Counted from the first letter of the stretch, positions 1-63,935 are shown. The stretch: DNA of 64,000 nucleotides from Candidatus Omnitrophota bacterium (GCA_041652815.1 JBAZGN010000001.1:381855-445854); one strand, 5' to 3'. The notes: generated by a model not told the origin, from the sequence alone. A program made the numbers and translations.

Positions 1-908
1 GAGTTTTTATCCAGGCAGAAAGCGAGTTGGCCGCTATAAATATGGTTTTTGGCGCAGCCGCAACAGGGGCGCGCGCGCTTACTAGTTCTTCCAGCCCCGG
101 CATATCGCTTAAACAGGAAGGTATCTCCTATATTGCAGGCGCCGGCTTGCCGGCGGTTATAATAAATGTTATGCGTGGCGGGCCTGGTCTGGGAAATATC
201 ACATCCAGCCAAAGTGATTATTTTCAGTCAACCCGCGGCGGCGGCCACGGCGATTATTTTACGCCGGTACTCGCCCCTTTTTCCGCCGAAGAGGCAGCCA
301 AATTAGTTTTACTTGGTTTTGATCTGGCGGATTATTACCGGACACCGGTTTTAATTTTAGCGGATGCAATCGTCGGCCAGGCGATGGAGGGGGTAGATTT
401 TCCTTCAAAAAGCGAATTTAAGAAAAAACTTCCTCCCAAAAAGTGGGCGCTTACAGGGGCAAAGGGCCGGCCGGCGAATATAGCAAAATCTTTTTTTCTT
501 AAGGAAGGAGCGCTCGAGATTCACAATGAAAAGCTTAGAGAAAAATGGGAAAAAATAAAACAGAATGAGCAAAGAAGTTCCACATATAAAACAGAAGATG
601 CAAAATATCTTATTATAGCTTATGGCTCGCAGGCACGTATTGCCTGGGAAACAGTTGATATGCTTCGAGAACAGAAAATAAAAGCGGGGTTATTTAGGCC
701 AATAAGCCTTTGGCCGTATCCAGATGCGGGCTTACAAAAGTGCGCCAAAAATATAAAAAAAATATTTGTAATTGAACAATCTCTCGGCCAAATGCTTGAT
801 GACGTAAAACTTGCATTGCCCGGCAAAGAGGTCAAATTTCTTGGCAAAACCGGCGGTGGAATTCCATCGGTTACGGAGATTATGAAATTTGTTAAAAGTA
901 CCACGTAA
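1..908 (+). CDS. 2-oxoacid:ferredoxin oxidoreductase alpha subunit (KorA/PorA-like), 5' partial at the window edge
   Basis: The ORF runs off the window start. The translation shows pyruvate/2-oxoglutarate:ferredoxin oxidoreductase alpha-subunit C-terminal motifs (GAAATGARAL...GLPAVIINVMRGGPGLGNI). It is followed by beta and gamma subunit genes. Confidence 0.8.
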   Translation, partial: VFIQAESELAAINMVFGAAATGARALTSSSSPGISLKQEGISYIAGAGLPAVIINVMRGGPGLGNITSSQSDYFQSTRGGGHGDYFTPVLAPFSAEEAAKLVLLGFDLADYYRTPVLILADAIVGQAMEGVDFPSKSEFKKKLPPKKWALTGAKGRPANIAKSFFLKEGALEIHNEKLREKWEKIKQNEQRSSTYKTEDAKYLIIAYGSQARIAWETVDMLREQKIKAGLFRPISLWPYPDAGLQKCAKNIKKIFVIEQSLGQMLDDVKLALPGKEVKFLGKTGGGIPSVTEIMKFVKSTT

Positions 909-1020
909 CAAGTAGCACGTTTTAAAAGACGTGTTACCTCCACTCCAAGTGGACTCGCCTAAATGTTTTTATATGGTGGCGAGGATACGTGTGACGTGCT
1001 ACGTATAATTGTTGCATAAC

Positions 1021-1758
1021 ATGAAGTCAAAATTTACAAGGCCAGTTTCGTTGAGGGATGCTGCAACCCATTATTGCTCCGGTTGCGGCCACGGAATTTT
1101 GCATCGATTAGTTGCCGAAGTAATCGATGAGCTTGGGCTTCGCGAAAAGACAATAGGAGTCGCTCCGGTTGGCTGCGCGGTTGTTGCATACGATTATTGG
1201 GATTTTGATGTTTGCGAGGCCGCGCATGGAAGGGCGCTTGCGGTTGCAACCGGAATAAAAAGATGCCGGCCAGAGAACGTTGTTTTTACGTATCAGGGCG
1301 ATGGAGACCTGGTTTCCATAGGAATGGCAGAAACTTTTCATACGGCAAATAGAGGCGAGAACGTTAGCTGTATTTTTGTAAATAATGCCTGCTATGGTAT
1401 GACTGGAGGGCAAATGGCGCCAACAACGCTTACCGGCCAAATAACAATAACTACACCTTGGGGGCGAAGCCCCAAAGCTAAAGAAGGTTGGCCTATAAAA
1501 TTTAGTGAAATTTTAGCCAGCCTCGAAGGGGTTAATTTTGCAGCGCGCGCCGCGGTTTCCAGCCCAAAAGAAATAATAAAAGCGCGCTCATACATCAAAA
1601 AAGCTTTTACAAATCAATTAGAAAATAAAGGTTTTTCGATAGTTGAAGTTTTAAGCCCCTGTCCTACGGTTTGGCAGAAAAAGCCACATGATGCAATGAA
1701 GTGGATAGATGAAGAAATGGTAAAAACGTTTCCTTTGGGAGTTATTAAATCAACATGA
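1021..1758 (+). CDS. 2-oxoacid:ferredoxin oxidoreductase beta subunit (TPP-binding)
   Basis: CSGCGHG TPP/Fe-S motif. The GDG...NN region is typical of KorB/PorB. The likely ATG start is 1021 (MKSKF); the ORF track uses an upstream TTG at 1009. Confidence 0.85.
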   Translation: MKSKFTRPVSLRDAATHYCSGCGHGILHRLVAEVIDELGLREKTIGVAPVGCAVVAYDYWDFDVCEAAHGRALAVATGIKRCRPENVVFTYQGDGDLVSIGMAETFHTANRGENVSCIFVNNACYGMTGGQMAPTTLTGQITITTPWGRSPKAKEGWPIKFSEILASLEGVNFAARAAVSSPKEIIKARSYIKKAFTNQLENKGFSIVEVLSPCPTVWQKKPHDAMKWIDEEMVKTFPLGVIKST

Positions 1759-1859
1759 ATAACGATTTAGATGCTAGATGCTTGATACTAGATGCTCGTA
1801 AAAAATAAAGACAACAAGTATCTAGGATCTAGCATCGAGAATCGATGCAAATTTAAATT

Positions 1860-2402
1860 ATGAAAGTAGATATACTACTATCCGGTGCAGGCGGGCAAGG
1901 TTTAATGAGCCTTGGCAAAGTAATTGCCGCCGCAGCAATTTTAGAAAATAAATTCACAACGTATTTCCCTTCTTATGGGCCAGAAGTAAGAGGGGGGACT
2001 GCGTATTGCTATGTAAAGATTTCAGATAAGCCTATTGCATCCCCACTCGTTGAAACGCCTGACGCGGCAATAATATTAAACCAGCAATCTCTGGAGAAAT
2101 TCAAAAATCGATTGGACAAAAATTGTACCTTAATATTGAATTCAGACCTCATACAAGACAAACCAAATTTATCAGCTAAAAAGATAATTTATCTTCCGTT
2201 AAGCAAGGTTGCCCTTAAATGCGGAGATATAAGATGTGCAAATGTAGTTGCTTTAGGCGCGCTTATCCAACTAAATCCGGATATTCTTAAGCAGGAAACA
2301 ATTACCGGGATTTTAAAAAAAATCTTTAGCGCCAATAGTTCTATGCTAAATATTAACATCAAAGCATTGTCTAGGGGCCACGAAGCAGCCAAGAATCATT
2401 AA
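1860..2402 (+). CDS. 2-oxoacid:ferredoxin oxidoreductase gamma subunit
   Basis: N-terminal ILLSGAGGQGL motif characteristic of POR/KOR gamma subunits. It sits in alpha-beta-gamma operon order with the two upstream ORFs. Confidence 0.8.
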   Translation: MKVDILLSGAGGQGLMSLGKVIAAAAILENKFTTYFPSYGPEVRGGTAYCYVKISDKPIASPLVETPDAAIILNQQSLEKFKNRLDKNCTLILNSDLIQDKPNLSAKKIIYLPLSKVALKCGDIRCANVVALGALIQLNPDILKQETITGILKKIFSANSSMLNINIKALSRGHEAAKNH

Positions 2403-2431
2403 ACTTATACAAGCTTCAAAATTATCCAAAA

Positions 2432-4378
2432 ATGCAAATGGGCAATAAAGCGGTTGAATTTTTAAAATTTCCGGTTTTTTTCATCTTTTTCGCATTTTTA
2501 GTTTTATGTGTTTCCTACAACTTAAATGATGCGGATTATTTTTTTCATACCAAGTGCGGAGAATATATCGTCACGCACAAAAGTATTCCCAAGGAGGACA
2601 TATTTTCTTTTTCCAAGGCAGGCAGCCCCTGGACTAACCATGAATGGTTTTATCAGGTTTTAATTTACTCGCTCTACAAAAATTGGGGAATTGATGGGTT
2701 TTTCTTTTTACGAACCGCGGTTTTTTGCCTAGCCTTCCTGATGCTTGCGATTTTTTCGCTAAAAACTGAGTGGATGTTTAGTTTCCCGCTTATTTTTTAT
2801 GGGCTTCAGGTATCTTTCGGGCGATTTACTTTGCGGCCGGATAATTTCAGTTTTCTCTTTTTTATTTTATTCTTGACGCCCTTTGTTTTTAAGAAAAAAT
2901 GGCTGCTTTTCTTTCTTCCATTAATTCAGGTTTTTTGGGTCAATATCCACGGATTTTTCTTTTTAGGGCCGGCTGTTTTACTTATCTATCTTTTACTGGG
3001 CAAGATAAAAAATAAAGAAACTGATATAGCTTTTTATAACACAGTTAAAATAATTTTTGTATTAACTTTTCTCGCCTGTTTTTTAACTCCCCAACCCATT
3101 CAAACAATTAAGTACCCTTTAACAATTTTAAAAGATATCGCATCCGGCAACCAAAAAATATTTTATAAATACATTCAAGAGCTCCAAAGCCCCTTTTCGG
3201 ATTTTTCGCATAACCGGATTTTCTTTAATTTCATACTATTTTCTTTAGTGTGCCTTGTTTTCTTGCATAAACTAAATTTTTTCTATGTAGGCCTGATAAT
3301 AGCCTTGGCTATATTTTCTTCAAACTCTCTGCGTAATATGTATTTTTTCGTTCCAGTTGCAATAGCTGTATTCGTTGACAGGTATTCGCAGATAAAAGAT
3401 TTTTTGTTGAAAAATATTTTGAAAGAAAAAGGCTTTAAATTGCTGAAATTATTCTTTATTGTACTGGCTATCGTTTTCTCTATAAGCATGTTCCAGCAAC
3501 TTAAAAGTTTCCCCGGCCGCGGACGGGCATTAATTACCCAAAATCAGGAAATCAACGTAAAATCCGCTTTTTTAAATATAGACCCTTATGAAAATCCCAA
3601 AGATATGCTTGATTTTATAGAAAAACATAAGCTCCCCGAGCGAATGTTTAACACATTTAACATTGGCGCCCATTTAATATTTAATTTTTTCCCGCAAAGA
3701 AAGGTTTTTATCGACGGACGGGCGGATTTCTACGGGCCAGAATTTTTTGATATGTATACACAAATCATTAGAGGCAATGAAGCTGCGTTAAAATATGCAA
3801 TAAAAAAATATGATTTGGACGGGTTTATCATGTGTTATTTTGCAGATACCCCTTCATCGAGCATAAAGTATATCAACGAAAAAGGCTTTAAATGCGTATA
3901 TTTTGGCTGGGATGGAATAATTTTTGTCAAAGATGATCTTATCGAGAAAGACCCTTCGTTAAAGGCTCTTATAGTTGACTTTGGTTCTTTGAATGTCGAG
4001 AAGCTTGATTTGATTAAAAATATCAAGCTCAAAATGCCTTATGTGAAAAGTTATCTCGATAAAGCAAAAGTTTTATACTTTTTGGGTTATTACGAAAAAA
4101 GTAAAGAATATTTAAATGAAATAATAAAGATTTATCCAAACAATGACGAAGCATATCTGCTTCTTGCGAAAATTTATTACAGACAGGGCAGTTACGACAA
4201 GGCTTTTATGTATTGCCGCAACAGTTTATTTTTTAATCCCTCTTTGGAAAGCGCACATACTCTTTTAGCAAAAATATATGTAAAAACCGCAAATTTAGAA
4301 GATGCACGCAGGGAAGCAGAAAAATATAAAGTAGATTTTAACAAATTCTTAGAGGAGACCAAAAATGAAAAGTACTGA
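2432..4378 (+). CDS. polytopic membrane protein with C-terminal TPR repeats, possibly a GT-C/TMTC-like glycosyltransferase
   Basis: About 10-12 predicted hydrophobic helices in the N-terminal 400 aa, then C-terminal TPR-like repeats (YEKSKEYLNEIIKIYPNNDEAYLLLAKIYYRQGSYDKA...). The family cannot be assigned from sequence alone. Confidence 0.5.
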   Translation: MQMGNKAVEFLKFPVFFIFFAFLVLCVSYNLNDADYFFHTKCGEYIVTHKSIPKEDIFSFSKAGSPWTNHEWFYQVLIYSLYKNWGIDGFFFLRTAVFCLAFLMLAIFSLKTEWMFSFPLIFYGLQVSFGRFTLRPDNFSFLFFILFLTPFVFKKKWLLFFLPLIQVFWVNIHGFFFLGPAVLLIYLLLGKIKNKETDIAFYNTVKIIFVLTFLACFLTPQPIQTIKYPLTILKDIASGNQKIFYKYIQELQSPFSDFSHNRIFFNFILFSLVCLVFLHKLNFFYVGLIIALAIFSSNSLRNMYFFVPVAIAVFVDRYSQIKDFLLKNILKEKGFKLLKLFFIVLAIVFSISMFQQLKSFPGRGRALITQNQEINVKSAFLNIDPYENPKDMLDFIEKHKLPERMFNTFNIGAHLIFNFFPQRKVFIDGRADFYGPEFFDMYTQIIRGNEAALKYAIKKYDLDGFIMCYFADTPSSSIKYINEKGFKCVYFGWDGIIFVKDDLIEKDPSLKALIVDFGSLNVEKLDLIKNIKLKMPYVKSYLDKAKVLYFLGYYEKSKEYLNEIIKIYPNNDEAYLLLAKIYYRQGSYDKAFMYCRNSLFFNPSLESAHTLLAKIYVKTANLEDARREAEKYKVDFNKFLEETKNEKY

Positions 4379-5675
4379 TAAGACGATAGTTCGATTTGCG
4401 CCGTCGCCTACCGGATATTTGCATATCGGCGGAGCGCGAACCTGCCTTTTTAACTGGCTTTACGCGCGCCATACAAAAGGAAAATTTATTCTGCGCATTG
4501 AAGATACTGACCTTGCGCGCTCAAAGCAGGAGTATCTTGATGAGATTTTAGAAAGCATAAAGTGGCTGGGTATGGACTTCGATGAAATTTATTATCAGTC
4601 AAAAAGGTTCGGCCTTTACCGTGATTATGCACAAAAACTTATTGATTGCGGCAGGGCTTACAAGAAAGACGACGCGGTATTTTTTAAATACGATTTTGCT
4701 AATGCTAATGTAGAAATTGATGATTTAATCCGCGGTAAAATTGTTTTTAACGAATTGCCCAAAGAGGAAGAGGTTATTATTAAAAAAGACGGCACCCCCA
4801 CTTATAATTTTAGCTGTTGTATAGACGACGCGCTTATGGAAATGTCGCTTATCATAAGAGGAGAAGACCATATTTCCAATACTCCAAAACAAATATTAAT
4901 GTATAAAGCCCTGGGGTTTTCCGTGCCGCAATTTGCGCACGTTCCCCTGATCCTATCCGAGGAAGGCGGAAGAATGTCCAAACGTTATGGTGCGACTTCC
5001 ATACGCGAATACAAAGAGGATGGTTATTTATCCTGCGCAATCGCCAACTACCTTTTACTTTTAAGCTGGTCTCCCGGAGGTAACCGTGAAATAATTACCC
5101 TTTCCGAAGCCAAAGATATTTTTGAGATAAAAAAAGTGAATAAAACTGCCGCGGCCTTTTCTATGGATAAATTAAACTGGATGAATTCAGAATATATAAA
5201 GAAAAAAAGCCCAGAGGAATACTTATCGCTGGTTGAAGAGTATTTGAAAGGCAAAAACTTTTTACCGGCTAATATTGATAAAGAATATGCTAAAAAGGTA
5301 TTCCTGCTTTTTAAAGACAGGCTTTCCAAGCTGTCGGATTTGTTTACCCGCGCCAGATTTTGTTTCTATGATGATTATACTTACGATGAAGATACCAAAG
5401 AAATCCTTGCGCGGAACTTATCCAAAGAAATAAATATACTGGCGGAAAAATTTTCTGCCCTCACAAATTTTAATCACGAAGAAGTAGAACAAGAATTCCG
5501 AAAAGTTGCAACCGATTTAGGCCTTAAAACGAAAGAGCTGGTTCATCCTGTGAGAGTTGCGCTTTCCGGAAAAAAAGTAGGCCCCAGCTTATTTGAAACC
5601 ATGGAGGTCCTTGGTAAAGAAAGAGTTGTAGCCATGTTAAAACGGCTGATTGATTATTGGGGTGCTAATACATAG
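4365..5675 (+). CDS. gltX: glutamyl-tRNA synthetase
   Basis: Class I HIGH motif (PSPTGYLHIGGAR) and KMSKR motif (RMSKRYG). The start overlaps the upstream stop by 14 nt. The protein is short for a GluRS (436 aa). Confidence 0.9.
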   Translation: MKSTDKTIVRFAPSPTGYLHIGGARTCLFNWLYARHTKGKFILRIEDTDLARSKQEYLDEILESIKWLGMDFDEIYYQSKRFGLYRDYAQKLIDCGRAYKKDDAVFFKYDFANANVEIDDLIRGKIVFNELPKEEEVIIKKDGTPTYNFSCCIDDALMEMSLIIRGEDHISNTPKQILMYKALGFSVPQFAHVPLILSEEGGRMSKRYGATSIREYKEDGYLSCAIANYLLLLSWSPGGNREIITLSEAKDIFEIKKVNKTAAAFSMDKLNWMNSEYIKKKSPEEYLSLVEEYLKGKNFLPANIDKEYAKKVFLLFKDRLSKLSDLFTRARFCFYDDYTYDEDTKEILARNLSKEINILAEKFSALTNFNHEEVEQEFRKVATDLGLKTKELVHPVRVALSGKKVGPSLFETMEVLGKERVVAMLKRLIDYWGANT

Positions 5676-5789: not shown

Positions 5790-7475
5790 ATGAAACCAAA
5801 TTTTGTTACCGAAATTATTGATGAGCATAATAAAACCGGCCGTTTTAACGCGAGGGTGCATACGCGTTTTCCGCCCGAGCCAAACGGTTATTTGCATATT
5901 GGCCACGCCAAGGCGATTTATCTAAATTATTCTATAGCCAAGCAATACAACGGAAAATTTAATCTGCGTTTTGACGATACCAACCCTTGCAAAGAAGAAC
6001 AAGAATACGTTGATTCAATCATTGAGGATGTGAAATGGCTTGGCGCAGATTACCAAGGCCGCCTTTTCTACGCCTCGGATTATTTTGCGCAAATGTACGA
6101 ATACGCGGTAGCTTTGATTAAAAAAGGCAAAGCTTATGTCTGCGATTTAAATGCAGACCAAATCCGCACCTCGCGCGGCACTCTAACCGCGCCGGGAAAA
6201 GATAGCCCGTTTCGAAACCGCAGCGCAGAAGAAAACCTGGATTTATTCACGCGGATGCGTAAAGGTGAATTCCCTGATGGCTCACGGACTTTACGCGCAA
6301 AAATAGATATGGCGCATCCTAATTTTAATATGCGTGATCCAATAATGTACCGTATCCTACATTCCGCTCATCATCGTACCAAGGATAATTGGTGTATATA
6401 TCCCACGTATGACTGGGCGCATGGCTTGGAAGATTCCATAGAAAACATTACCCACTCGATATGCACGCTTGAATTTGAGAACCACCGGCCTTTATACGAT
6501 TGGTTTCTTGAGCAATTAGAAATATTTCATCCGCAGCAGATTGAGTTTGCCCGCTTAAATATTACCTATACGGTATTAAGCAAGCGAAAGCTTCTTGAAT
6601 TGGTTGAAGGTAATTTTGTCAGCGGCTGGGATGACCCGCGCATGCCAACTCTCGCAGGCCTTCGGCGCCGCGGTTACCCTAAAGAAGCACTGCATAATTT
6701 CTGCGAAGAGATAGGTGTCGCCAAATTTAACAGTACAATTGATGTAGGCGTGCTTGAGGAAGCGGTACGCGGCATCTTAAATAAAACCGCCGCGCGCGTA
6801 ATGGCAGTGCTTAGGCCGCTTAAAATTATCATCAAAAATTATCCTGAAGGTAAATTCGAAGAGCTTGAAGCGGTAAATAATCCGGAAGATGCTTCTATGG
6901 GTAGCCGGAAAATATTTTTCTCCCGCGAAATTTTCATTGAACAGGATGATTTTCGCGAAAATCCGCCCAAGGAATTTTTCCGTCTTTCCCCAGGTCGTGA
7001 AGTGCGGCTGCGTTATGCCTATTTTCTTAAATGCGAAGAAGTAATTAAGGATAAAGACGGCAATATTACGCAATTAATTTGCAGTTATGACCCGCAAACC
7101 CGCGGCGGAAACGCACCAGATGGACGCAAGGTAAAAGCAACAATTCATTGGGTGTCTTGCCACGATAGTTTCAATGCGCAGGTTAACCTTTACGACAGGC
7201 TTTTTAGTAGTCCAGACCCGGAAAATGTCGCTACCGGAGGTGATTTTAAATCCAACATAAACCAGCGTTCGTTGGAAACTATTAATGATGCAAAGCTTGA
7301 ACCATCGCTTAAAAAAGCGCAACCTAACCAACGTTATCAATTTGAACGCCTTGGCTATTTTTGCCTTGATACACGAAGCTGCGGGCAAAATTTGGTTTTT
7401 AACCGTATCTCTACCTTACGGGACACTTGGGCGAAAATAAAGCAGAAGCTTGGGAAACAGCAGATTAGTCAATAG
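5790..7475 (+). CDS. glnS: glutaminyl-tRNA synthetase
   Basis: [25 protein letters not shown] and a VLSKRK-type KMSKS region are typical of GlnRS. Start chosen at MKPNF (5790), inside the longer ORF that opens at 5736. Confidence 0.9.
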
Positions 7476-7570
7476 TCCATAGTCGATAGCCCATAGTAAA
7501 AACTGTGGACTATGCCCCCCCTGCGGGGAGGCTTCGCTCTCGACAGTCGATAGTCGTTAGTATAAATAAA
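7473..7570 (+). repeat. ~95-bp repeat element that begins at the stop codon of the upstream gene; copy 1 follows glnS
   Basis: Shares aTAGtccatagtcga(t/c)ag ... cccctg(c/t)ggggaggcttcgctctc with 15014-15112, which lies after proA. In both copies the host gene's TAG stop codon is the first triplet of the element. Confidence 0.6.
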
Positions 7571-9834: not shown

Positions 9835-10163
9835 GCGAAGCAGAACTGTCCCTGCGAAGCCTGACCCGATGTTCTATTCTCTGAAGGGCGAAGCAGGACA
9901 GCCGTTCTTAATTTCAAATCAAAATTTTCGTACTTTTAGTGCTGATTTTTATGGAAGTAAATATGACCCAAACCGAAGTATTCGAATTTTTGAATAAAAA
10001 TCCCGTAATGTATTTAGCAACCTGTTGAATAATAGAAACTAATTTTTCACCCAAAGATCATATCAAGCTTTATTGATTAAATAAGAGAACAGAGAAGAAG
10101 TAAAATATTTTCTGTTATCTGTAAACTGTACTCTGTACTCTTTCCGAGCGAAGCGAGGAAAAC

Positions 10164-11033
10164 ATGCTAACCCAAGAATTAAAAACAAAAGTTTTAAAAG
10201 CCCAGAAAAATGAGCTTACCGAACATATAATTTATAAAAATCTCGCTTCGGTTATAAAAGATAAACAACAGAGCGAAATTTTAATCAGAATATCAAACGA
10301 AGAGTTGACGCATTATGAGTTTTTTAAAAGCATAACACAAGAAGAAGTTGCACCGGATAGTTTTAAGATTTTTCTTTATGTTTTTATTTCCCGCATCTTT
10401 GGCTTAAATTTTGGCTTAAAACTTATGGAAAATGGAGAAGACCTGGCGCAAGATGCCTATGATAGATTAAAAGAAATTTCACCGCAGATAGATGATATCA
10501 TCAAGGATGAAGAAAAACACGAAACAGAATTAATTGATTTAATCAACGAAGAACGCCTGAAATATGTAAGCTCAATAGTTTTAGGCTTAAATGACGCTTT
10601 GGTAGAATTAACCGGTGCTTTAGCTGGCTTTACTCTTGCCCTGCAAAATACAAAGCTTATTGCAATTATCGGTTTAATTACAGGAATTGCCGCTTCTATG
10701 TCTATGGCCGCTTCTGAATATTTATCTACCAAACACGAAGAAACCGATAAAACGCCCCTTAAAGCATGTATTTATACCGGCATTACCTATGTAGGCACAG
10801 TAATGTTTCTGATTTTTCCTTATCTTTTGTTCAAAAATATATTCGTTTGCCTCGGTATCACAGTTACGAACGCCCTTTTATTGATTCTTATTTTTACTTT
10901 CTATACATCAGTTGCCAAAGGGCTTAGCTTTAAGAAAAGATTTTTCGAGATGGCTAGTATCAGTTTAGGCATAGCAGTAATCAACTTTTTTATAGGCTTT
11001 GCAATAAGAAAAGTGTTTGGTGTTGAAGTTTAA
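10164..11033 (+). CDS. ferritin-like/VIT1 (CCC1) family membrane iron/manganese transporter (MbfA-like)
   Basis: N-terminal ferritin-like/rubrerythrin-like domain, then C-terminal VIT-family TM helices. Architecture typical of membrane-bound ferritin-like proteins. Confidence 0.65.
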   Translation: MLTQELKTKVLKAQKNELTEHIIYKNLASVIKDKQQSEILIRISNEELTHYEFFKSITQEEVAPDSFKIFLYVFISRIFGLNFGLKLMENGEDLAQDAYDRLKEISPQIDDIIKDEEKHETELIDLINEERLKYVSSIVLGLNDALVELTGALAGFTLALQNTKLIAIIGLITGIAASMSMAASEYLSTKHEETDKTPLKACIYTGITYVGTVMFLIFPYLLFKNIFVCLGITVTNALLLILIFTFYTSVAKGLSFKKRFFEMASISLGIAVINFFIGFAIRKVFGVEV

Positions 11034-13697: not shown

Positions 13698-13765
13698 CCA
13701 GCTATCAGTCATCAGCTATCAGCTTTCGGCTGAAGACTGACGACTGAAGGCTGAAAGCTTTATCT

Positions 13766-15016
13766 ATGCAAAAATACGTAAAAAATCTAGTCAAAAAAGC
13801 GAAAGAGGCCAGCTATAAGCTATCGCAGCTCGATAGCGAAAAAAAGAACGCCATACTATTTCAAATGGCTGATTATCTCATCGCGAATAAGGATTTTATT
13901 CTTAAAGAAAACGCGAAAGATGTTAAAACCGCCATAAAAAATAAATTACAGCAAAGTTTCATCGACCGCCTTACGCTTTCCGATAAACGTTTAAATGAAA
14001 TGAGCAACTCTCTAAAAGAAATTGCAAAGCTGCCCGACCCCGTTGGAAAAGTTATCGGCGAGTGGCAACGGCCAAACGGCCTTAAGCTTAAAAAAGTAAG
14101 AATTCCTATCGGAGTTATCCTCGTAATTTTCGAAGCGCGGCCCAATGTAACGAGCGACTGCGTGGGGCTTCTTTTTAAATCTTCTAACGTTGCGATACTT
14201 CGCGGCGGAGGAGATTCTATAAATTCAAATAGAGCCATAGGAAAAATTCTTAAAAAAGCAATACAATCCAGCGGCATAAACTTCGAGCCTTTTTTTATCA
14301 TCGAGAAAACAGAACATAAAATAGTTGATTTGTTACTTTCCGAAAATGAATACATAGACCTGGTTATTCCAAGAGGCGGAGAAGCTCTCATACGTAAAGT
14401 CGTAGAAAGTTCCAAAATTCCAGTAATAAAACATTATAAAGGAGTATGCCATATATTCGTAGATAAGGCATTAGACATAGGCAAAGCCTTACGCATTTGT
14501 GTAAATGCCAAAGTGCAAAGGCCTTCAGTGTGCAATGCCGTTGAAAAAATTCTTGTGCATCAAGATGTGGCAAATAATTTCCTTCCTTTGTTAAAAAAAG
14601 AACTTGATAAATATAAAGTGGAAATAAGAGGGGATAGCAAAACCTGCCGGATATTAAAAGGCATAAAAAAAGCCAAAGATGCGGATTGGTTTGCTGAATA
14701 CCTCGATTTGATAGTTACGATAAAAGTTGTGGCAAATATCGATAGTGCAATTTCTCATATAAATTTTTACGGCTCTCACCACACAGACGCAATTGTCACG
14801 AAAGATTTAAGCAAAGCGGCAAAATTTACAAAAGAAGTTGATTCTGCCTGCTGTTTCGTAAATATTTCAACCCGTTTTAGCGACGGCTTTCAGTTTGGCC
14901 TAGGCGCTGAGATAGGCATATCTACCGATAAAATCCACGCCCGCGGCCCAATGGGGCTTACGGAGCTTACTACTTACAAATGGGTGGTTGAAGGGGACGG
15001 GCAGGTAAGGGAATAG
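13766..15016 (+). CDS. proA: gamma-glutamyl phosphate reductase
   Basis: Aldehyde dehydrogenase-like fold with a catalytic Cys context (PSVCNAVE). Follows proB. Confidence 0.9.
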   Translation: MQKYVKNLVKKAKEASYKLSQLDSEKKNAILFQMADYLIANKDFILKENAKDVKTAIKNKLQQSFIDRLTLSDKRLNEMSNSLKEIAKLPDPVGKVIGEWQRPNGLKLKKVRIPIGVILVIFEARPNVTSDCVGLLFKSSNVAILRGGGDSINSNRAIGKILKKAIQSSGINFEPFFIIEKTEHKIVDLLLSENEYIDLVIPRGGEALIRKVVESSKIPVIKHYKGVCHIFVDKALDIGKALRICVNAKVQRPSVCNAVEKILVHQDVANNFLPLLKKELDKYKVEIRGDSKTCRILKGIKKAKDADWFAEYLDLIVTIKVVANIDSAISHINFYGSHHTDAIVTKDLSKAAKFTKEVDSACCFVNISTRFSDGFQFGLGAEIGISTDKIHARGPMGLTELTTYKWVVEGDGQVRE

Positions 15017-15112
15017 TCCATAGTCGACAGTCGATAGTTCACAGATTTAAAACTATGGATTATGGTCCCCTGTGGGGAGGCTTCGCTCTCTATGGACTGT
15101 GGACTAAATTAT
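15014..15112 (+). repeat. second copy of the stop-codon-containing ~95-bp repeat element; follows proA
   Basis: See 7473-7570. The proA TAG stop codon is the first triplet of the element. Confidence 0.6.
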
Positions 15113-15117
15113 TATGA

Positions 15118-15160
15118 AAATAGGAATTTTAGGCGGAACGTTTAACCCGCCGCTTAGAGA
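15118..15160 (+). other. 43-bp perfect duplicate of the nadD 5' end (ATG plus 13 codons), left border of an insertion
   Basis: atgaaaataggaattttaggcggaacgtttaacccgccgc is identical to 15853-15895. Confidence 0.85.
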
Positions 15161-15171
15161 GTGGAAGAAAG

Positions 15172-15717
15172 ATGGATTTTAAAACAGTATTAAAAAAATT
15201 GATAGATATATTTGAAAAAAACAAGATAGATTATGCACTTATTGGCGGGTTCGCCCTGGGTGTGTATGGAGTAGTCAGGGCTACTAATGATTTAGACTTT
15301 CTTATCGACAAGAAATACAATACATTTCTTAAGAAAATGATGAAACAGAATATGTATGATATTATTTATGAATCAGAAAATGTTATACAATTTGAGCACC
15401 CTGCTGCGATATTCGGCAGTATTGATTTTTTGTATGCGTTTAGGAAACCTTCTTTAGAAATGCTAAAAAGAGCAGTTGAGAAAAATTTATTCGAAAAAAC
15501 CATAGCCATAAAAGTGCTTTTGCCGGAGGACATAATTGGTTTAAAAGTACAGGCATTTGTAAATCGCCCGGAACGCAAAGTTTTCGAATTAGAGGACATT
15601 AAAAGTTTGATAACGGCAAACTTAAGTGAGTTGGATTGGGAAATCATAAAAAAACATTTTGCTTTATTTAATTTAGCTACATTATATGAAGAATTGAAAA
15701 ATAATTATGGTAAATAA
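15172..15717 (+). CDS. nucleotidyltransferase-fold protein (minimal pol-beta type NTase; Lnu/ANT/AbiEii-like), inserted gene
   Basis: GG...G...ATNDLDFLID is a G[SG]-x(n)-DhD nucleotidyltransferase signature. The gene lies between the two copies of the nadD 5' end. Confidence 0.55.
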   Translation: MDFKTVLKKLIDIFEKNKIDYALIGGFALGVYGVVRATNDLDFLIDKKYNTFLKKMMKQNMYDIIYESENVIQFEHPAAIFGSIDFLYAFRKPSLEMLKRAVEKNLFEKTIAIKVLLPEDIIGLKVQAFVNRPERKVFELEDIKSLITANLSELDWEIIKKHFALFNLATLYEELKNNYGK

Positions 15718-15852
15718 ACATAAAATTATACCGAATACTGTTAGCGAAAAAAAACGCATAGAAACATATTTACGTTTTGTTATATTTTTTAATAAATTTA
15801 TCAATCATAAAAAAAAGATTCACCGGCAGTTTGTCGAACGCGAAATGAAAAT

Positions 15853-16413
15853 ATGAAAATAGGAATTTTAGGCGGAACGTTTAACCCGCCGCACGTCGGA
15901 CATTTAATACTTGCTCAGGAAGTAGCGCAAAAGCTTTCTCTGGATAAGATTTTTTTTATTCCTACCAATATCCCGCCGCACAAAGAAAGCCACAATGTAA
16001 AAGGCCGCGACAGGCTTAATATGGTTAAGCTTGCGGTAAAAGGAGACAGCCGTTTTGAGGCGCTTGATTTAGAAATAAAACGCGGCGGCGTTTCTTACAC
16101 GATAGATACTGTACGCGAGCTTAAAAATAAATTTAAACGCGCGCAATTTATCCTTATAGTTGGTTCCGACCTGGCTAATGATTTTCCTACCTGGAAATAT
16201 TTTGAAAGCTTAAAAAAAGCAGTAAAAATTGTCGTTGCCAAGCGCCGGGCATATCCCTTGGAAACAAAAAACAGATTCATAATCGCGCAGATTGTGCAGA
16301 TGGGAATTTCTTCTTCTTACATAAGAGGGTTGATAAAAAAAGGATTTTCTGTAAAATACCTTGTTACTGATAGCGTGGCGGGGTACATAGAAAAGCATAA
16401 ATTATATAAATAA
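15853..16413 (+). CDS. nadD: nicotinate-nucleotide adenylyltransferase
   Basis: GGTFNPPHVGH (H/T)xGH motif. Size and overall sequence are typical of NadD. Confidence 0.9.
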   Translation: MKIGILGGTFNPPHVGHLILAQEVAQKLSLDKIFFIPTNIPPHKESHNVKGRDRLNMVKLAVKGDSRFEALDLEIKRGGVSYTIDTVRELKNKFKRAQFILIVGSDLANDFPTWKYFESLKKAVKIVVAKRRAYPLETKNRFIIAQIVQMGISSSYIRGLIKKGFSVKYLVTDSVAGYIEKHKLYK

Positions 16414-16486
16414 AGCTTTCAGCCATCAGCTTTCAGCTGAGGACTGACGACTGAGAGCTGACAGCTTTTAGAAAGGAGTTAACCAA

Positions 16487-17878: not shown

Positions 17879-18437
17879 AATCTGTAAGGGGCTTTGTTTC
17901 CTGATTGTAAGTTTGTTCTGTAAAATAGAGGTAAAAGGAAAAGACGTATTTCCGAAAGCCGGGCCTTTTATTTTGGCATCAAACCACATAAGCTACCTTG
18001 ACCCGGAAATTGTCGGCATGGTCTGCCCAAGGCAATTAAATTATCTTGCCAAGGAAGAATTATTCCAAAATAAATTATTTGCAGCATTTCTTAAAAAAAT
18101 AAATGTAATACCCATTAAAAGAGGGCAGGCGGATTTACATGTTTTACGCTTGAGCTTAAAAATACTGGAAGATAGGCCTTTGCTGATTTTCCCGCAGGGC
18201 ACACGCGCAACTAATTATGATTCTTTTAAGGAAGGCGTAGGTTTTCTTTACAAAAATTCCCAAGCGCCGGTGATTGCGGCTAAAGTTTACGGAACGGACA
18301 AAGTTCTTCCCAAAGGCGCTAAGTTCTTAAGATTCGGTAAAATAAAGGTCATTTTTGCCAAAGTAGAGGGCTTAGAAGGCCAGAATACCCGCCACCAGGT
18401 GACGGCAAAGGTCGTCGAAACCATAAAAAGCCTTTAA
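17868..18437 (+). CDS. plsC: 1-acyl-sn-glycerol-3-phosphate acyltransferase
   Basis: NHISYLD (HX4D) acyltransferase motif and a PQGTR motif. Confidence 0.8.
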   Translation: MTYEICKGLCFLIVSLFCKIEVKGKDVFPKAGPFILASNHISYLDPEIVGMVCPRQLNYLAKEELFQNKLFAAFLKKINVIPIKRGQADLHVLRLSLKILEDRPLLIFPQGTRATNYDSFKEGVGFLYKNSQAPVIAAKVYGTDKVLPKGAKFLRFGKIKVIFAKVEGLEGQNTRHQVTAKVVETIKSL

Positions 18438-18660
18438 AATAGCCATCAGCCATCAGCTTTCAGTCTTCAGCAGCTGACAGCTGATGCCTGAACGCTGAAA
18501 GCTGATAGTTATTGACAAAAATAATTCTTTAAGAGATAATTGTTGCCCTGTAAACGCCTTGATTGTTATCAGATATCGCATATCTAGCAAGGCAACTTCA
18601 GGGAAAAAATTAGATATTTAATTCTGGGTTAACCTGGGATAAATTGGAGGTTTAAAGCTA

Positions 18661-39297: not shown

Positions 39298-39372
39298 ATC
39301 TTCTAATTTGATAAAAGGCAAAAATAAATTTGACAAATCATCAAATTTATGCTATACCAAAATTGTTAGCGT
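39298..39372 (+). promoter_or_regulatory. second copy of the conserved promoter element; TTGACA (39329-39334), 17 nt, TGcTATACC; upstream of the T2SS cluster with a ~200-nt 5' UTR
   Basis: About 85% identical to 23371-23445. Confidence 0.7.
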
Positions 39373-39577
39373 TTTCAATGATTGTTATGGGTCCCCGGAA
39401 TTGATAACAAGCTCTTGCCGAGTATCATTTTGCGGATAATGAGGAAGCCACGGAATCCGGGATAAAAGGGCAAAGAGTAATTTCGGGGACACATTAACCA
39501 ATTACCAAGGTATTTATACTGTTTCCCTTCCTGGGCGGTGAAAAGAGGAAATAGCAAGTTCAAACGTTTAGATTAAT

Positions 39578-42639: not shown

Positions 42640-42735
42640 CAGAAACACAGATGATCACAGATGGCAAATCGCAGATGATCGCAGATGAATTTATCTGTGA
42701 TCATCTGCTTACGAATCTGTGATTATCTGCGTAAC
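42640..42735 (+). repeat. word-based hairpin repeat of the cacagatgatc family, between gspF and gspG
   Basis: cacagatgatcacagat...atctgtgatcatctg is a perfect inverted repeat. Related copies lie at 47425-47510 and 53028-53125. Confidence 0.7.
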
Positions 42736-45990: not shown

Positions 45991-47427
45991 ATGGCAAAGC
46001 AAATTAGACAAAAGAAAAGCAAAAAAGACATTTTTATAATCCAGGTTACCGAAGATTATTTAAAGATTATCAAAAGCCGGCAAGGGCCTTTGAATAAAAG
46101 GGAATTTATCGATTTTGAATTTGTGCGGCTTGCGGATGGAATTAATGATAAGGAATTGGCTGAAAAAACAAAATCGCTTCTTAAAAAATTAAATTATAAC
46201 AACAATCAAGTAATACTTTCTTTACCCAGGCACCAGGCAACCTGCAGATATATAAAAGTGCCTGCTAAATTTCCAGCGGAAATAGACAAAATAATACCTT
46301 TTCAGGCTTCTAAATATCTTCCATATCCGATCCAGGAATTAATTACCGGTTATCAGATTATTTCAACCGACAAGGAGGGGTATTCCTACATTAATTTAAA
46401 TATTGTTCATAAAGATATTGTTTTGGGTTATCTTTCATTCTTGAATCCGTTGGGGATAAAAAATTTTTCTATTATTCTAAGCTCGTATGGGCTGTGTAAC
46501 CTGTACAGTGAAATAGCCCCGCTTTCAAACGTAAGTATGGTTGTCGACATAGATGATAACTACGTAGAGTTAATTGTGGTATCGCAGAAGAAACTTTCCT
46601 TCAGCCGGTCCCTTAAGATATCCCAACAACAGAATCTAGAAAATATATTGTCCGAAGAAATAAAAAAGACAAACAACGCTTATGTAAAAGAAACAGGCCA
46701 AGCGTCCGCACCAGGCGCGATTATATTTACAAGCAAAAATATTTCCGCGCAGGATTTATCCGTAAAAATATCTATGCCTGTGGAAGTATCTGATTATTGC
46801 AGCAAAGTCTGTCCACAGTCTGCGCAAGCAGTATGCGAAAAAATAAAAGCAACAGGCTTGTCAGTTGCAGGCCTGATAGGCCTTGGCTTGAAAGAAATAA
46901 GCGCCGAATTAAATATCCTTCCCGAAAATATAAAACAACTGCGCATACGCGCATTCAAGAAAAAAGAATTAATAAAATCAGCGGTTACCATATTACTCAC
47001 CGCCCTAATGTTTACATTTGCCGTAATGAAAGATTTGGACAACAAAAGGCATTACAGGGATAAGCTCAAAATAGAATTGGATAAAATATCGAAAGAAGCA
47101 AAAACCCTCGAGGAGATAGAGAGGCGTTTTGTTCTTCTTGAATCTGAGGCAAAATACAGGCTTATGGCTTTGGAAGTGCTTTATGAACTGCATAAAATAA
47201 TGCCCAAAGATATTCATCTTAGCAGTTTTATCTACGAAGATGATAAACAGATTGCTTTGCGGGGGCAGACTCCTGAGCTGAATTATGTGCTTGAGTTGGT
47301 TTCCGGAATCGAAAAATCCAAAGCCTTCAGTAATTTTACATGTAAGTTGCGCTATGCTACAAAAAAGAAAACACAAATGGGTGAGATTATTGACTTTGAG
47401 ACGATTTGTTTAAAAAAACACAGATGA
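45991..47427 (+). CDS. GspL/PilM-PilN-like bitopic assembly protein
   Basis: Cytoplasmic actin-like domain, one central TM helix (ILLTALMFTFAV), and a periplasmic coiled-coil/ferredoxin-like region. The position after gspK is canonical for gspL. Confidence 0.55.
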   Translation: MAKQIRQKKSKKDIFIIQVTEDYLKIIKSRQGPLNKREFIDFEFVRLADGINDKELAEKTKSLLKKLNYNNNQVILSLPRHQATCRYIKVPAKFPAEIDKIIPFQASKYLPYPIQELITGYQIISTDKEGYSYINLNIVHKDIVLGYLSFLNPLGIKNFSIILSSYGLCNLYSEIAPLSNVSMVVDIDDNYVELIVVSQKKLSFSRSLKISQQQNLENILSEEIKKTNNAYVKETGQASAPGAIIFTSKNISAQDLSVKISMPVEVSDYCSKVCPQSAQAVCEKIKATGLSVAGLIGLGLKEISAELNILPENIKQLRIRAFKKKELIKSAVTILLTALMFTFAVMKDLDNKRHYRDKLKIELDKISKEAKTLEEIERRFVLLESEAKYRLMALEVLYELHKIMPKDIHLSSFIYEDDKQIALRGQTPELNYVLELVSGIEKSKAFSNFTCKLRYATKKKTQMGEIIDFETICLKKHR

Positions 47428-47519
47428 TCACAGATAATAAATCACAGATGACCACAGATAAAATCATCTGTGATCATCCGCTTACAAATCTGTGCTGATC
47501 TGTGTGGAGCGAAGCGACT

Positions 47520-63222: not shown

Positions 63223-63335
63223 ATTCAGAGGACAGATGACAGAGCACAGAGAACAGAGAAAAAGTAAAAAAATATTCTGTACTCTGTTTTCTGTAATCTG
63301 TACTCTGTAAACTAACCGAGCGAAGCGAGGTTAAC

Positions 63336-63935
63336 GTGCCTGTATTTGGTTTAACGGGAAATTTAAACTGCGGGAAAAGCACCGCCCTTAGGTTACTTAA
63401 AAAAAAGGGTGCTTGTATTTTTGACGTCGATAGTAAGATTCACGAATATTATAAAAACAAAAAAGGCTCAATTTACAAGAAAATATCTGCGCTCTTTCCG
63501 CAAGCAATTTTCGATGGGCTAATTGACCGGCGAGAACTTGGAAAAATAGTTTTTTCAGACAGGAAAAGCCTCTTAAGGCTTGAGGCAATCGTGCATCCGG
63601 CTGCCGTGAGAGATTTAAAATCATGGGTAAAAAACGCCAGGCAATCCGGCAGGGTTTGTGTGACAGAAGTCCCGTTACTTTTTGAAAAAAATCTCGAAGG
63701 TATCTTTGACGGAATAATCTTGGTTTATGTAAAAAGAGATGTCTTCTTAAAGAGAATAAAAAAGAATCTTAAACTTTCCGCAGCCACAGCTTCCGCGCGC
63801 TTAAGATGCTTTAATCCGGTTGAAAAGAAGATGAAAAAGGCAGATTTTATTATAAACAACAGTTTCGATATGGAAACTTTAAAAAGGGAAATAGATATTT
63901 TGTGGGGTAGATTGAAACAATATAAACACGAATGA
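63336..63935 (+). CDS. coaE: dephospho-CoA kinase
   Basis: P-loop GLTGNLNCGKST. Size matches CoaE. GTG start with an upstream gagg RBS inside a conserved ccgagcgaagcgagg motif. Confidence 0.8.
   Translation: MPVFGLTGNLNCGKSTALRLLKKKGACIFDVDSKIHEYYKNKKGSIYKKISALFPQAIFDGLIDRRELGKIVFSDRKSLLRLEAIVHPAAVRDLKSWVKNARQSGRVCVTEVPLLFEKNLEGIFDGIILVYVKRDVFLKRIKKNLKLSAATASARLRCFNPVEKKMKKADFIINNSFDMETLKREIDILWGRLKQYKHE

Follow-up and report, generated by a model that had tools for sequence, protein, structure and literature searches.

A stretch of 64,000 nucleotides (nt) of DNA from a Candidatus Omnitrophota bacterium (GCA_041652815.1, JBAZGN010000001.1:381855-445854; hereafter the window, with positions counted from its first letter) contains, between proA and nadD, a cassette of two small genes that is bounded on both sides by a copy of the nadD 5' end (Table 1). 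The cassette encodes a minimal nucleotidyltransferase (NTase) and, in an overlapping open reading frame (ORF), a partner protein of 49 amino acids (aa). It lies within the conserved host operon obg-proB-proA-nadD, and the order proB-proA-(cassette)-nadD-pgm was kept in all relatives that we mapped (related loci are referred to here by L numbers). The two flanking copies form a perfect direct repeat of 41 nt (TATGAAAATAGGAATTTTAGGCGGAACGTTTAACCCGCCGC; 41/41 identical, start-to-start spacing 739 nt), which comprises a T, the ATG, 12 further nadD codons, and 1 nt, and the upstream copy departs from the nadD sequence after CCGCCGC. This 41-mer occurred exactly twice in the window, even with 3 mismatches allowed, and in none of 100 dinucleotide-preserving shuffles; in a whole-window repeat scan, it was the sole perfect repeat pair of at least 28 nt among the 20 largest of 26 repeat families. 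A preliminary description of this DNA, made from the sequence alone, had reported a perfect 43-nt repeat at 15118-15160 and 15853-15895 that enclosed 692 bp with a solo 181-aa NTase gene and an AT-rich tail. The perfect repeat exists and the NTase ORF was confirmed at 15172-15717, while the repeat measures 41 nt (15113-15153 and 15852-15892) and the DNA between the copies 698 nt (15154-15851); the supposed tail is the conserved protein-coding ORF of the partner (15707-15856), which overlaps the NTase stop, and the NTase is thus not solo.

Table 1. Features of the proA-cassette-nadD locus, with positions in the window
Feature	Position	Strand	Basis or remark
proA, gamma-glutamyl phosphate reductase, upstream flank	13766..15016	+	416-aa ORF, Aldedh Pfam match
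Native proA-nadD intergenic region, 5' of the displaced nadD start (nadD')	15017..15112	+	GTCCATAGTCGA-type short palindromic repeats
Upstream 41-nt copy, displaced nadD start without the rest of the gene	15113..15153	+	41/41 to 15852-15892
22-aa leader ORF MKIGILGGTFNPPLREWKKDGF, opened by the displaced nadD start codon	15114..15182	+	Stop overlaps NTase start; translation predicted
Left junction and purine-rich spacer TTAGAGAGTGGAAGAAAG, 5' end of the inserted DNA	15154..15171	+	18 nt to NTase ATG
Putative toxin, 181-aa MenT1-like (DUF1814/AbiEii superfamily) NTase	15172..15717	+	Pfam, PADLOC, AlphaFold model, motifs
49-aa partner ORF, putative antitoxin	15707..15856	+	Start overlaps NTase stop ATGGTAAATAA; stop overlaps nadD ATG (ATGA)
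Downstream 41-nt copy, functional nadD 5' end	15852..15892	+	41/41 to upstream copy
Intact nadD, nicotinate-nucleotide adenylyltransferase, target gene	15853..16413	+	186 aa; TIGR00482 full length

Because the 41 target bases were duplicated, the essential gene nadD remains intact, and its product matched TIGR00482 over the full length (184 bits, cut-off 112) and was 95% identical to NadD of L019. Every boundary in the chain of ORFs from the leader through the NTase and its partner to nadD overlaps or abuts. The leader has analogues in two other loci, one of 18 aa with a stop 5 nt before the NTase ATG (L004) and one that reads across the NTase ATG (L121). Since the NTase ATG follows the duplication after a spacer of only 18 nt (sequence tag TTAGAGAG), there is no room for a promoter. 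Consensus scans for promoters and terminators around the insert were uninformative, as they did not give more sites than were found in shuffled sequence. The GTCCATAGTCGA-type motif family of the intergenic region recurs at 7460-7497 (family D15 of the repeat scan).

One concern is that the 41-mer was duplicated only in the assembly, through a chimeric join or a collapsed repeat, as the window comes from a metagenome-assembled genome, an exact repeat of 41 nt falls within the k-mer range, and one related contig (L099) is possibly a strain chimera. This explanation is practically negligible. An independent assembly in the European Nucleotide Archive, from another sample (L179), was 99.88% identical to the window over 12.5 kb and contained both 41-mers, so that the repeat structure is not an assembly artefact and this candidate is ruled out. 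In addition, the JGI contig L099/L180 spans both repeats, and the non-identical duplications found in two related lineages (L004-9 and L014) cannot be k-mer artefacts.

When species-representative genomes were scanned with nadD and their genes mapped, the proA-nadD site proved to be empty, with the 41-mer segment in a single copy, in eight genomes (L019, L020, L021, L022, L024, L025, L026, and L028). In these, proA and nadD are contiguous, as expected if the DNA between the repeats had been inserted into the nadD 5' end, which is what the preliminary description had proposed; the opposite pattern, a duplicated structure common to all relatives, had been named there as a sign of an ancient fixed arrangement and was not found, as empty sites exist. 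The closest relative of the window is L019, with aa identities of 94% (proA), 95% (nadD), and 94% (pgm) and nt identities of 85-90%. The same cassette was present at the same proA-nadD junction in five other lineages (L001, L004, L010, L012, and L014), where NTase aa identity to the window was 82% (L001-3), 75% (L004-9), 75% (L010-11), 71% (L012-13), and 66% (L014-15/L029). Across these deep-branching filled relatives, identity was ~64-78% for the cassette and 66-82% for the NTase alone. Cassette identity tracked flank identity, and L012 and L014 were sisters in both the cassette and the flank trees; for L001 and L010, a cassette similarity of 76% against 85% in the flanks hints at some exchange.

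Three deep lineages have upstream nadD' copies with the same end-point (+/- 1 nt), each in a different state. That of the window is perfect. The copy in L004-9 matched at 36/41 positions, with all five differences synonymous and within the first 18 nt and none in the last 23 nt, whereas the L014 copy had 8 differences including a 1-nt deletion; in L001, L010, and L012, the upstream copy is gone. The L004 and L014 copies share a 5' half (ATGAAAATCGGAATAYT) that is unlike their own nadD and equal to L001 nadD, and we read this half (ATC/ATA/CTT codons) as a probable fossil of the ancestral target. The 3' half of the L004 copy carries L004-specific substitutions (GGG and CCA) that are common to L004 nadD, which points to gene conversion between the two copies. 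As L004 and L014 carry converted or decayed nadD' copies, the duplication predates the filled lineages, and the earlier suggestion that a perfect repeat implies a very recent insertion is not supported, given the same junction in deep relatives. The simplest history would be one ancestral insertion with a 41-nt duplication, after which the displaced copy decayed, was converted, or was lost. The insertion would thus be old in this Omnitrophota clade, often lost, and recently exchanged between lineages.

Two observations concern the upstream region of these relatives. In L008, a variant of the L004 lineage, a G-to-T change in the upstream nadD' (45-85) creates a stop at codon 4 (ATC TGA), and the leader peptide sequence is therefore seemingly not strongly constrained. 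In L001 (4396-4974; also in L002 and L003), the position of nadD' between proA and the cassette is taken by a 192-aa repeat protein, which has TPR-like sequence and a hydrophobic segment at its N-terminus.

The NTase scored 24.9 bits against the Pfam family AbiEii (PF08843, cut-off 22.5) in its N-terminal motif and was matched by several PADLOC AbiEii models, while Pfam matches to DUF2204 and NTP_transf_5 remained below threshold. An AlphaFold (AF2) model built on 25 homologues had a mean predicted local distance difference test (pLDDT) score of 89.6, and its top full-length matches in the Protein Data Bank (PDB; Foldseek search) were structures of MenT1, both as free toxin and in the MenAT1 complex (8an5/8an4/8rr5; template modelling (TM) score 0.70-0.78, E ~1e-9), with ANT(2'')-Ia, LnuA, and TM1012 clearly behind. 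Residues R36, T38, D40, K125, and D142 were invariant and D42 nearly invariant in the 25 homologues, and the R-x-T-x-D-x-D, K, and D motifs that they form align to RfTrDvD of MenT1 (T39/D41/K137/D152), in which the equivalent residues are reported to serve as phospho-acceptor (Thr), in metal binding (Asp), and in catalysis (Lys and Asp) (PMC10435456, PMC11375011). Both the fold and the catalytic motifs are thus of the DUF1814/AbiEii type seen in MenAT and AbiE systems, and a place among the toxin-type minimal NTases, one of the kinds named in the preliminary description, is borne out by the AbiEii match just over threshold and by MenT1 as the top structural match. From these comparisons, the cassette NTase is a member of the DUF1814 superfamily and a putative tRNA 3'-end-modifying toxin. 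Each of the two cassette proteins had ~400 database matches (E <= 0.001).

A stand-alone antibiotic NTase of the Lnu/ANT(2'') type, or a housekeeping enzyme, with an unrelated downstream ORF, would be a different way to read the same gene. The fold matches to ANT(2'')-Ia and LnuA (TM ~0.54-0.64), a match to the Pfam family Aminoglyc_resit (PF10706) at 16.7 bits, and the long-term retention of the NTase under purifying selection in several lineages would all fit such a role. Yet the PF10706 score lies below its cut-off of 21, so that in the hidden Markov model classification called for by the preliminary description AbiEii came out above and Aminoglyc_resit below threshold; MenT1 matches clearly better and over the full length (TM 0.74-0.78, E = 1e-9); and the invariant R-x-T-x-D-x-D motif includes the MenT phospho-acceptor Thr. 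The overlapping and strictly co-occurring small partner is moreover typical of toxin-antitoxin (TA) pairs, and the distribution of the cassette is patchy across many contexts. We consider an antibiotic or housekeeping role very improbable.

An ORF in the position of the partner followed the NTase directly on its 3' side in essentially all loci with downstream sequence (~70 distinct loci), usually with an overlap of 4-17 nt at the NTase stop. Partners of the wider family have 73-75 aa, an invariant F..N.F.NH motif, and a conserved C-terminus (...DMKL/DMRL). Among seven nadD-clade sequences, substitutions in the partner numbered 475 at the third codon position against 236 and 205 at the other two, an excess that marks it as a coding sequence under purifying selection. 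A profile search of the partner family returned 433 relatives, all annotated as hypothetical and none with a Pfam domain, and sequence searches of Pfam, NCBIfam, PADLOC, and PDB gave no credible match. No antitoxin of a known family (COG5340 AbiEi/MenA3-like or MenA1-like) was found upstream of the NTase, and a literature search combining DUF2204 with nucleotidyltransferase gave no result. The AF2 model of the 49-aa partner was a single helix of low confidence (pLDDT 67). The closest known arrangement is MenAT1 (Rv0078B-Rv0078A) of M. tuberculosis, in which an NTase toxin is paired with a 68-aa antitoxin, MenA1 (PMC10435456). The cassette resembles MenAT1 in an NTase of ~180-195 aa with the same fold (TM 0.74-0.78), in equivalent R-x-T-x-D-x-D, Lys, and Asp catalytic residues with the phospho-acceptor Thr included, and in a very small partner (~50-75 aa against 68 aa) within a tight operon. 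By this analogy, the cassette is probably a TA-like pair working in the manner of the MenAT type, and we infer that its partner is the putative antitoxin of the NTase and would define a new partner family for DUF1814-type toxins.

In all cassette loci that had been retrieved, we looked for direct repeats between the region 5' of the NTase and the region 3' of the partner, and found the duplication signature at several unrelated genes. In L121 (NTase 50% identical to that of the window), the cassette lies between argH and lysA, and the first 44 nt of lysA are duplicated (43/44, with one synonymous difference); the upstream copy keeps the native overlap of the argH stop and lysA start (ATGCATGA), and the closest relatives (L197 and L198-200) have an empty lysA site with a single copy. 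In L127 (NTase 49%) and L181-188 (47%, 23 contigs read), the last 101 nt of ftsK are repeated 3' of the cassette (94/101), and the repeat fragment is recognised by Pfam as a piece of FtsK_gamma. In L105 (50%), the sequence flanking the cassette comes from the 3' end of a comM/yifB-type gene and measures ~0.9-1 kb, and a 1813-nt unit consisting of 0.9 kb of the comM/yifB 3' end and the cassette is repeated in tandem at least three times with 99% identity (1-5349). Shorter duplications were found in L178 (49%; a 35-nt hairpin, 34/35) and L132 (48%; a 26-nt segment, 24/26), and an apparent repeat in L126 consisted of simple intergenic repeat units and was not counted. At a repeat score of at least 25 and identical geometry, the signature was present in at least 5 of 23 evaluable cassette loci versus 1 of 486 control intervals. 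It is not universal, as loci of the P0059 type (argH-cassette-97 aa-lysA) had no detectable flanking repeat.

In about two-thirds of loci, the cassette points in the same direction as its neighbours, and the gaps to them are often very short. L100 carries a cassette of the nadD clade in an unrelated context, which indicates that the cassette has changed site. No transfer vehicle was identified, as the NTase had no match among viral contigs, PLSDB plasmids, or INPHARED phages. The preliminary description had also likened the repeats to attL and attR. A duplication of that form is present; an att-site mechanism is not supported: the insert has no recombinase ORF, and the targets nadD, lysA, ftsK, and comM share no core and have repeats of widely varying length, so that a recognisable site-specific element is ruled out. 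As a separate observation, a minimal NTase of the NTP_transf_2 type and a HEPN-like NTase_sub_bind protein are encoded as a pair directly 5' of a distant cassette in L016/L017 (2131-2806); this pair lies inside a sugar and sulfate metabolism cluster, where TA-type modules therefore cluster.

Insertion with long target duplication has been described for restriction-modification (RM) units (Nobusato et al. 2000, Gene 259:99; Furuta et al. 2010, NAR 38:2428, PMC2853133), which are inserts without mobility genes, bounded by direct repeats of more than 30 bp (46-423 bp) with a single-copy match in a related genome, and for which the authors proposed a cycle of insertion, amplification via the repeats, and release (PMC2853133). 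The locus in the window has a duplication of more than 30 bp (41/41 nt), a single-copy empty site in relatives (L019-L022; likewise L197/L198 versus L121 at lysA), and an insert far shorter than 20 kb (698 nt) without a transposase or integrase in it or beside it, its neighbours being proA and nadD. In place of restriction and modification genes, it carries the NTase and the small protein. The locus thus has every structural property of the RM type except the class of cargo, and is a known type of rearrangement with a different cargo. Both kinds of insert are small selfish or addictive gene units between direct repeats, without transposase or integrase, whose repeats vary in length (46-423 bp for RM units, 35 nt to ~1 kb for the cassette family), often overlap gene ends, and allow tandem amplification (L105 for the cassette). 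Unlike RM units, one cassette family shows the signature repeatedly at different genes, the duplication at nadD and lysA begins at the target start codon so that the cassette is threaded into the translation of the operon, and the NTase has no obvious counterpart to the DNA double-strand breakage proposed for RM (PMC2853133).

Two other classes of element also duplicate their targets. Transposons and insertion sequences (IS) share with the cassette a direct target duplication that flanks the insert, but their duplications are short and of fixed length and are accompanied by terminal inverted repeats and a transposase, none of which are found in this insert. Its ends have no inverted repeat and the duplications of the family range from 35 nt to ~1 kb, so that an IS or transposon identity is ruled out. 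Lambdoid phage 21 and e14, which integrate at the 3' end of E. coli icd, are examples of elements that bring a replacement for the gene end and so keep the target functional; the two copies of that end can differ synonymously, as they do in L004. These elements measure tens of kb and have their own integrase acting at a defined core, whereas the cassette insert has 698 nt, no recombinase, and many targets.

Overall, our data suggest, with a probability of about 0.62, that an old two-gene MenT1-like cassette entered nadD by insertion with long target duplication and was later subject to loss, exchange, and homogenisation of its repeats. We hypothesize that a promoterless cassette entered the obg-proB-proA-nadD operon within the first 14 codons of nadD, and that the insertion duplicated 41 nt of the target, perhaps through repair of a staggered break or through template switching, which would have rebuilt a complete nadD downstream and left the displaced start upstream. 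The cassette would be transcribed with proBA-nadD and so ride on the host operon, and the displaced nadD initiation region would drive translation of the NTase by coupling through the 22-aa leader. Since the partner stop overlaps the nadD ATG and the NTase stop overlaps the partner start, translation of nadD appears chained to the cassette and may depend on ribosomes that finish the partner ORF. The NTase would arrest growth by modifying tRNA 3' ends and the partner would neutralise it. Recombination between the two repeats would remove the cassette precisely, and in filled lineages the displaced copy may decay, be converted, or be lost. The identity of the repeats in the window would then reflect a recent homogenising event, either gene conversion or re-integration via the 41-nt homology, and would not date the insertion.

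Several observations weigh against this reading. In a bootstrapped tree of the flanks, (L022-,(L020-,(L019-,window+))), with 100% support at each node, the window is nested in three successive empty-site lineages, which favours a recent arrival; vertical retention in this subclade would take three losses, while a loss followed by a re-gain would take two events. The proA-nadD intergenic region of the window (15017..15112) could not be aligned to that of L019, and as the two are unrelated, L019 is not a simple derivative of a window-like allele by repeat-mediated deletion. On the functional side, the sequence similarity between the NTase and MenT1 is marginal (E = 0.076), and the Pfam AbiEii match spans 36 residues only. 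Compared with the wider family, the nadD-clade partner is missing its N-terminal third. No detectable similarity links it to MenA1 or AbiEi, and its gene comes after that of the NTase, unlike menA1, which is usually upstream of its toxin (15/21 menA1 homologues; PMC10435456). We infer the translational coupling from the ORF overlaps only. Many cassette loci have no detectable flanking repeat, and the mechanism of long target duplication is unexplained for RM units too (PMC2853133).

A sign of recent exchange comes from L099 (= L180), a JGI contig of which positions 1-1380 correspond to 15012-16391 of the window. The two showed 0 mismatches over 950 nt (15075-16024), a tract that includes the upstream repeat, the cassette, and the first 172 nt of nadD and reaches 38 nt and 132 nt past the repeats. 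Beyond it, the flanks diverged by 5-9%: 3/63 nt differed in the left flank and 33/367 in the rest of nadD, the latter about as far as L019 differs. Unless L099 is a strain chimera, this pattern suggests that the filled allele was recently transferred by recombination between lineages ~9% apart. Compared with L019, the window diverged by 8% over the final 200 nt of proA and by 9% over the initial 172 nt of nadD, where the background is 11-12%; because divergence does not rise beside the cassette, the window took no long tract from a distant lineage, and long-tract homologous import from such a source is ruled out. Base composition is uninformative about age: the GC content of the cassette (29.6% versus ~39% in the flanks) falls in the lowest 0.6% of windows, but the cassette is 5-12 GC points under its flanks in every nadD-site lineage and at three other targets, with L100, in which it matches its upstream gene, as the exception. 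Low GC is thus a standing property that cannot date the cassette, and was discarded as a sign of recent arrival.

With the window nested among empty lineages and a 100% identical copy in L099, a recent event in the window lineage, either re-integration or gene conversion, is likely. Three readings of the perfect repeat follow. Gene conversion of an old duplication is slightly favoured, because conversion is visible in L004. A new event of long target duplication at the same position is the least likely of the three, because it would need site specificity. In its full form, this last reading holds that the cassette was inserted de novo after the split from L019 and that the event itself made the 41-nt duplication, of which the copies are still identical. 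It would account for the 41/41 match between the copies, where nadD of the window and that of L019 differ at 4/41 positions in the same segment, for the position of the window within L019, L020, and L022, for flanks that are L019-like up to the cassette without a spike in divergence so that only the cassette is foreign, and for the low GC of the cassette. That the cassette has moved elsewhere (L100) and is 100% identical in another lineage (L099) would also fit. The junction (+/- 1 nt), the orientation, and the right-hand ATGA overlap are however the same as in L004, L014, and L001, where the cassettes are 64-78% identical, and independent events would require a site-specific mechanism, of which none is evident. 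Furthermore, no close donor cassette was sampled (the nearest is ~83% identical), low GC is constant for the cassette in all lineages, and copy-to-copy conversion does occur, as in L004. We therefore regard a recent de novo insertion as unlikely.

Re-integration, the remaining reading, would proceed by Campbell-type excision and re-entry with the 41-mers in the role of attL and attR, or by site-specific recombination in trans: a circle with the cassette and one repeat would enter a similar nadD 5' end and regenerate the same junction. Such a cycle would explain the presence/absence polymorphism at one precise site and the common junction in all filled lineages, and is in line with the insertion, amplification, and release cycle proposed for RM units (PMC2853133). 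The mosaic repeat of L004, with its 5 differences confined to the first 18 nt and a final 23 nt free of them, fits a crossover inside the repeat, the flanks of the window are native up to the repeats, and the tandem amplification in L105 shows that the repeats recombine. On the other hand, RecA-dependent exchange has a lower limit close to 41 nt, the insert neither contains nor adjoins a gene for an integrase or recombinase, and the passage of the identical L099 tract beyond the repeats indicates an ordinary double crossover rather than a single crossover within a repeat. No circular form was seen, the viral, plasmid, and phage collections gave no copy of the cassette, and the first origin of the duplications at lysA, ftsK, and comM is not explained by it. 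As an account of the locus, re-integration thus seems doubtful, and we prefer an old insertion with long target duplication followed by homogenisation of the repeats.

A further possibility is that the cassette is an autonomous minimal mobile element of which one or both products aid its own integration, or that an undescribed host pathway integrates foreign cassettes. In the former case, a transferase with a polymerase-beta fold might act at staggered breaks or prime fill-in synthesis, which would give long and variable duplications at gene ends; for the latter, we note two long-target-duplication events within one 64-kb window. We consider this quite improbable, and if true, it would supply the missing mechanism for long target duplication.

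Insertion with long target duplication has been known since 2000 for RM genes, with its mechanism unexplained and its examples scattered. One compact and widespread cassette family now shows the signature repeatedly at different genes, and its filled, empty, decaying, converted, and amplified states can be compared as a natural series for formation, persistence, and loss. A TA-like cassette threaded into the translation of the essential nadD could be hard to lose except by precise recombination between the repeats, and the putative antitoxin may, as noted above, add a partner family to the DUF1814-type toxins.

A second insertion with long target duplication was observed elsewhere in the window, at tyrS, of which the last 63 nt (21506-21568) are repeated at 23211-23273 (58/63). 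The 1.64-kb insert between these repeats has 30% GC and encodes a 444-aa Fic/DOC-family protein (21814-23148; PF02661, 61 bits; motif HPFTNGNGRLAR). Just 5' of the Fic gene and within the insert (21643-21825), there are three tandem units of 61 nt, each with a TTGACA-type element, which may be a reiterated promoter or operator.

Many intergenic regions of the window also contain families of short-period, partly palindromic repeats (CAGCTATCAGC, CACAGATGATCACAGAT, CTGTACTCTGTA, and GTCCATAGTCGATAG), at 13698-13761, 16409-16468, 18436-18512, and 55457-55491; at 42643-42732, 47416-47505, and 53029-53118; and at 10088-10167 and 63260-63339, as well as 7460-7497 and 15001-15038. The same intergenic positions in relatives are occupied by GCATAGCGC (L001/L010/L012), CATTACAC (L022), and CTGTGCTAATCTGT (L014). 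These elements, which resemble repetitive extragenic palindromic (REP) sequences, turn over fast and in some lineages have entered the interval from the cassette to nadD. Diverged tandem paralogues form two pairs (52020-52970/53136-54083 and 35139-35347/37133-37341) with 74-83% identity over segments of 42-209 nt and spacings of ~1.1 kb and 2.0 kb. Lastly, a promoter-like segment of 78 nt (TTGACAAATCATCAAA...TGCTATA) occurs at 23370-23447 and again, 16 kb apart and with 86% identity, at 39305-39382, and one of the copies lies upstream of a 980-aa surface-protein-like ORF at 23522.

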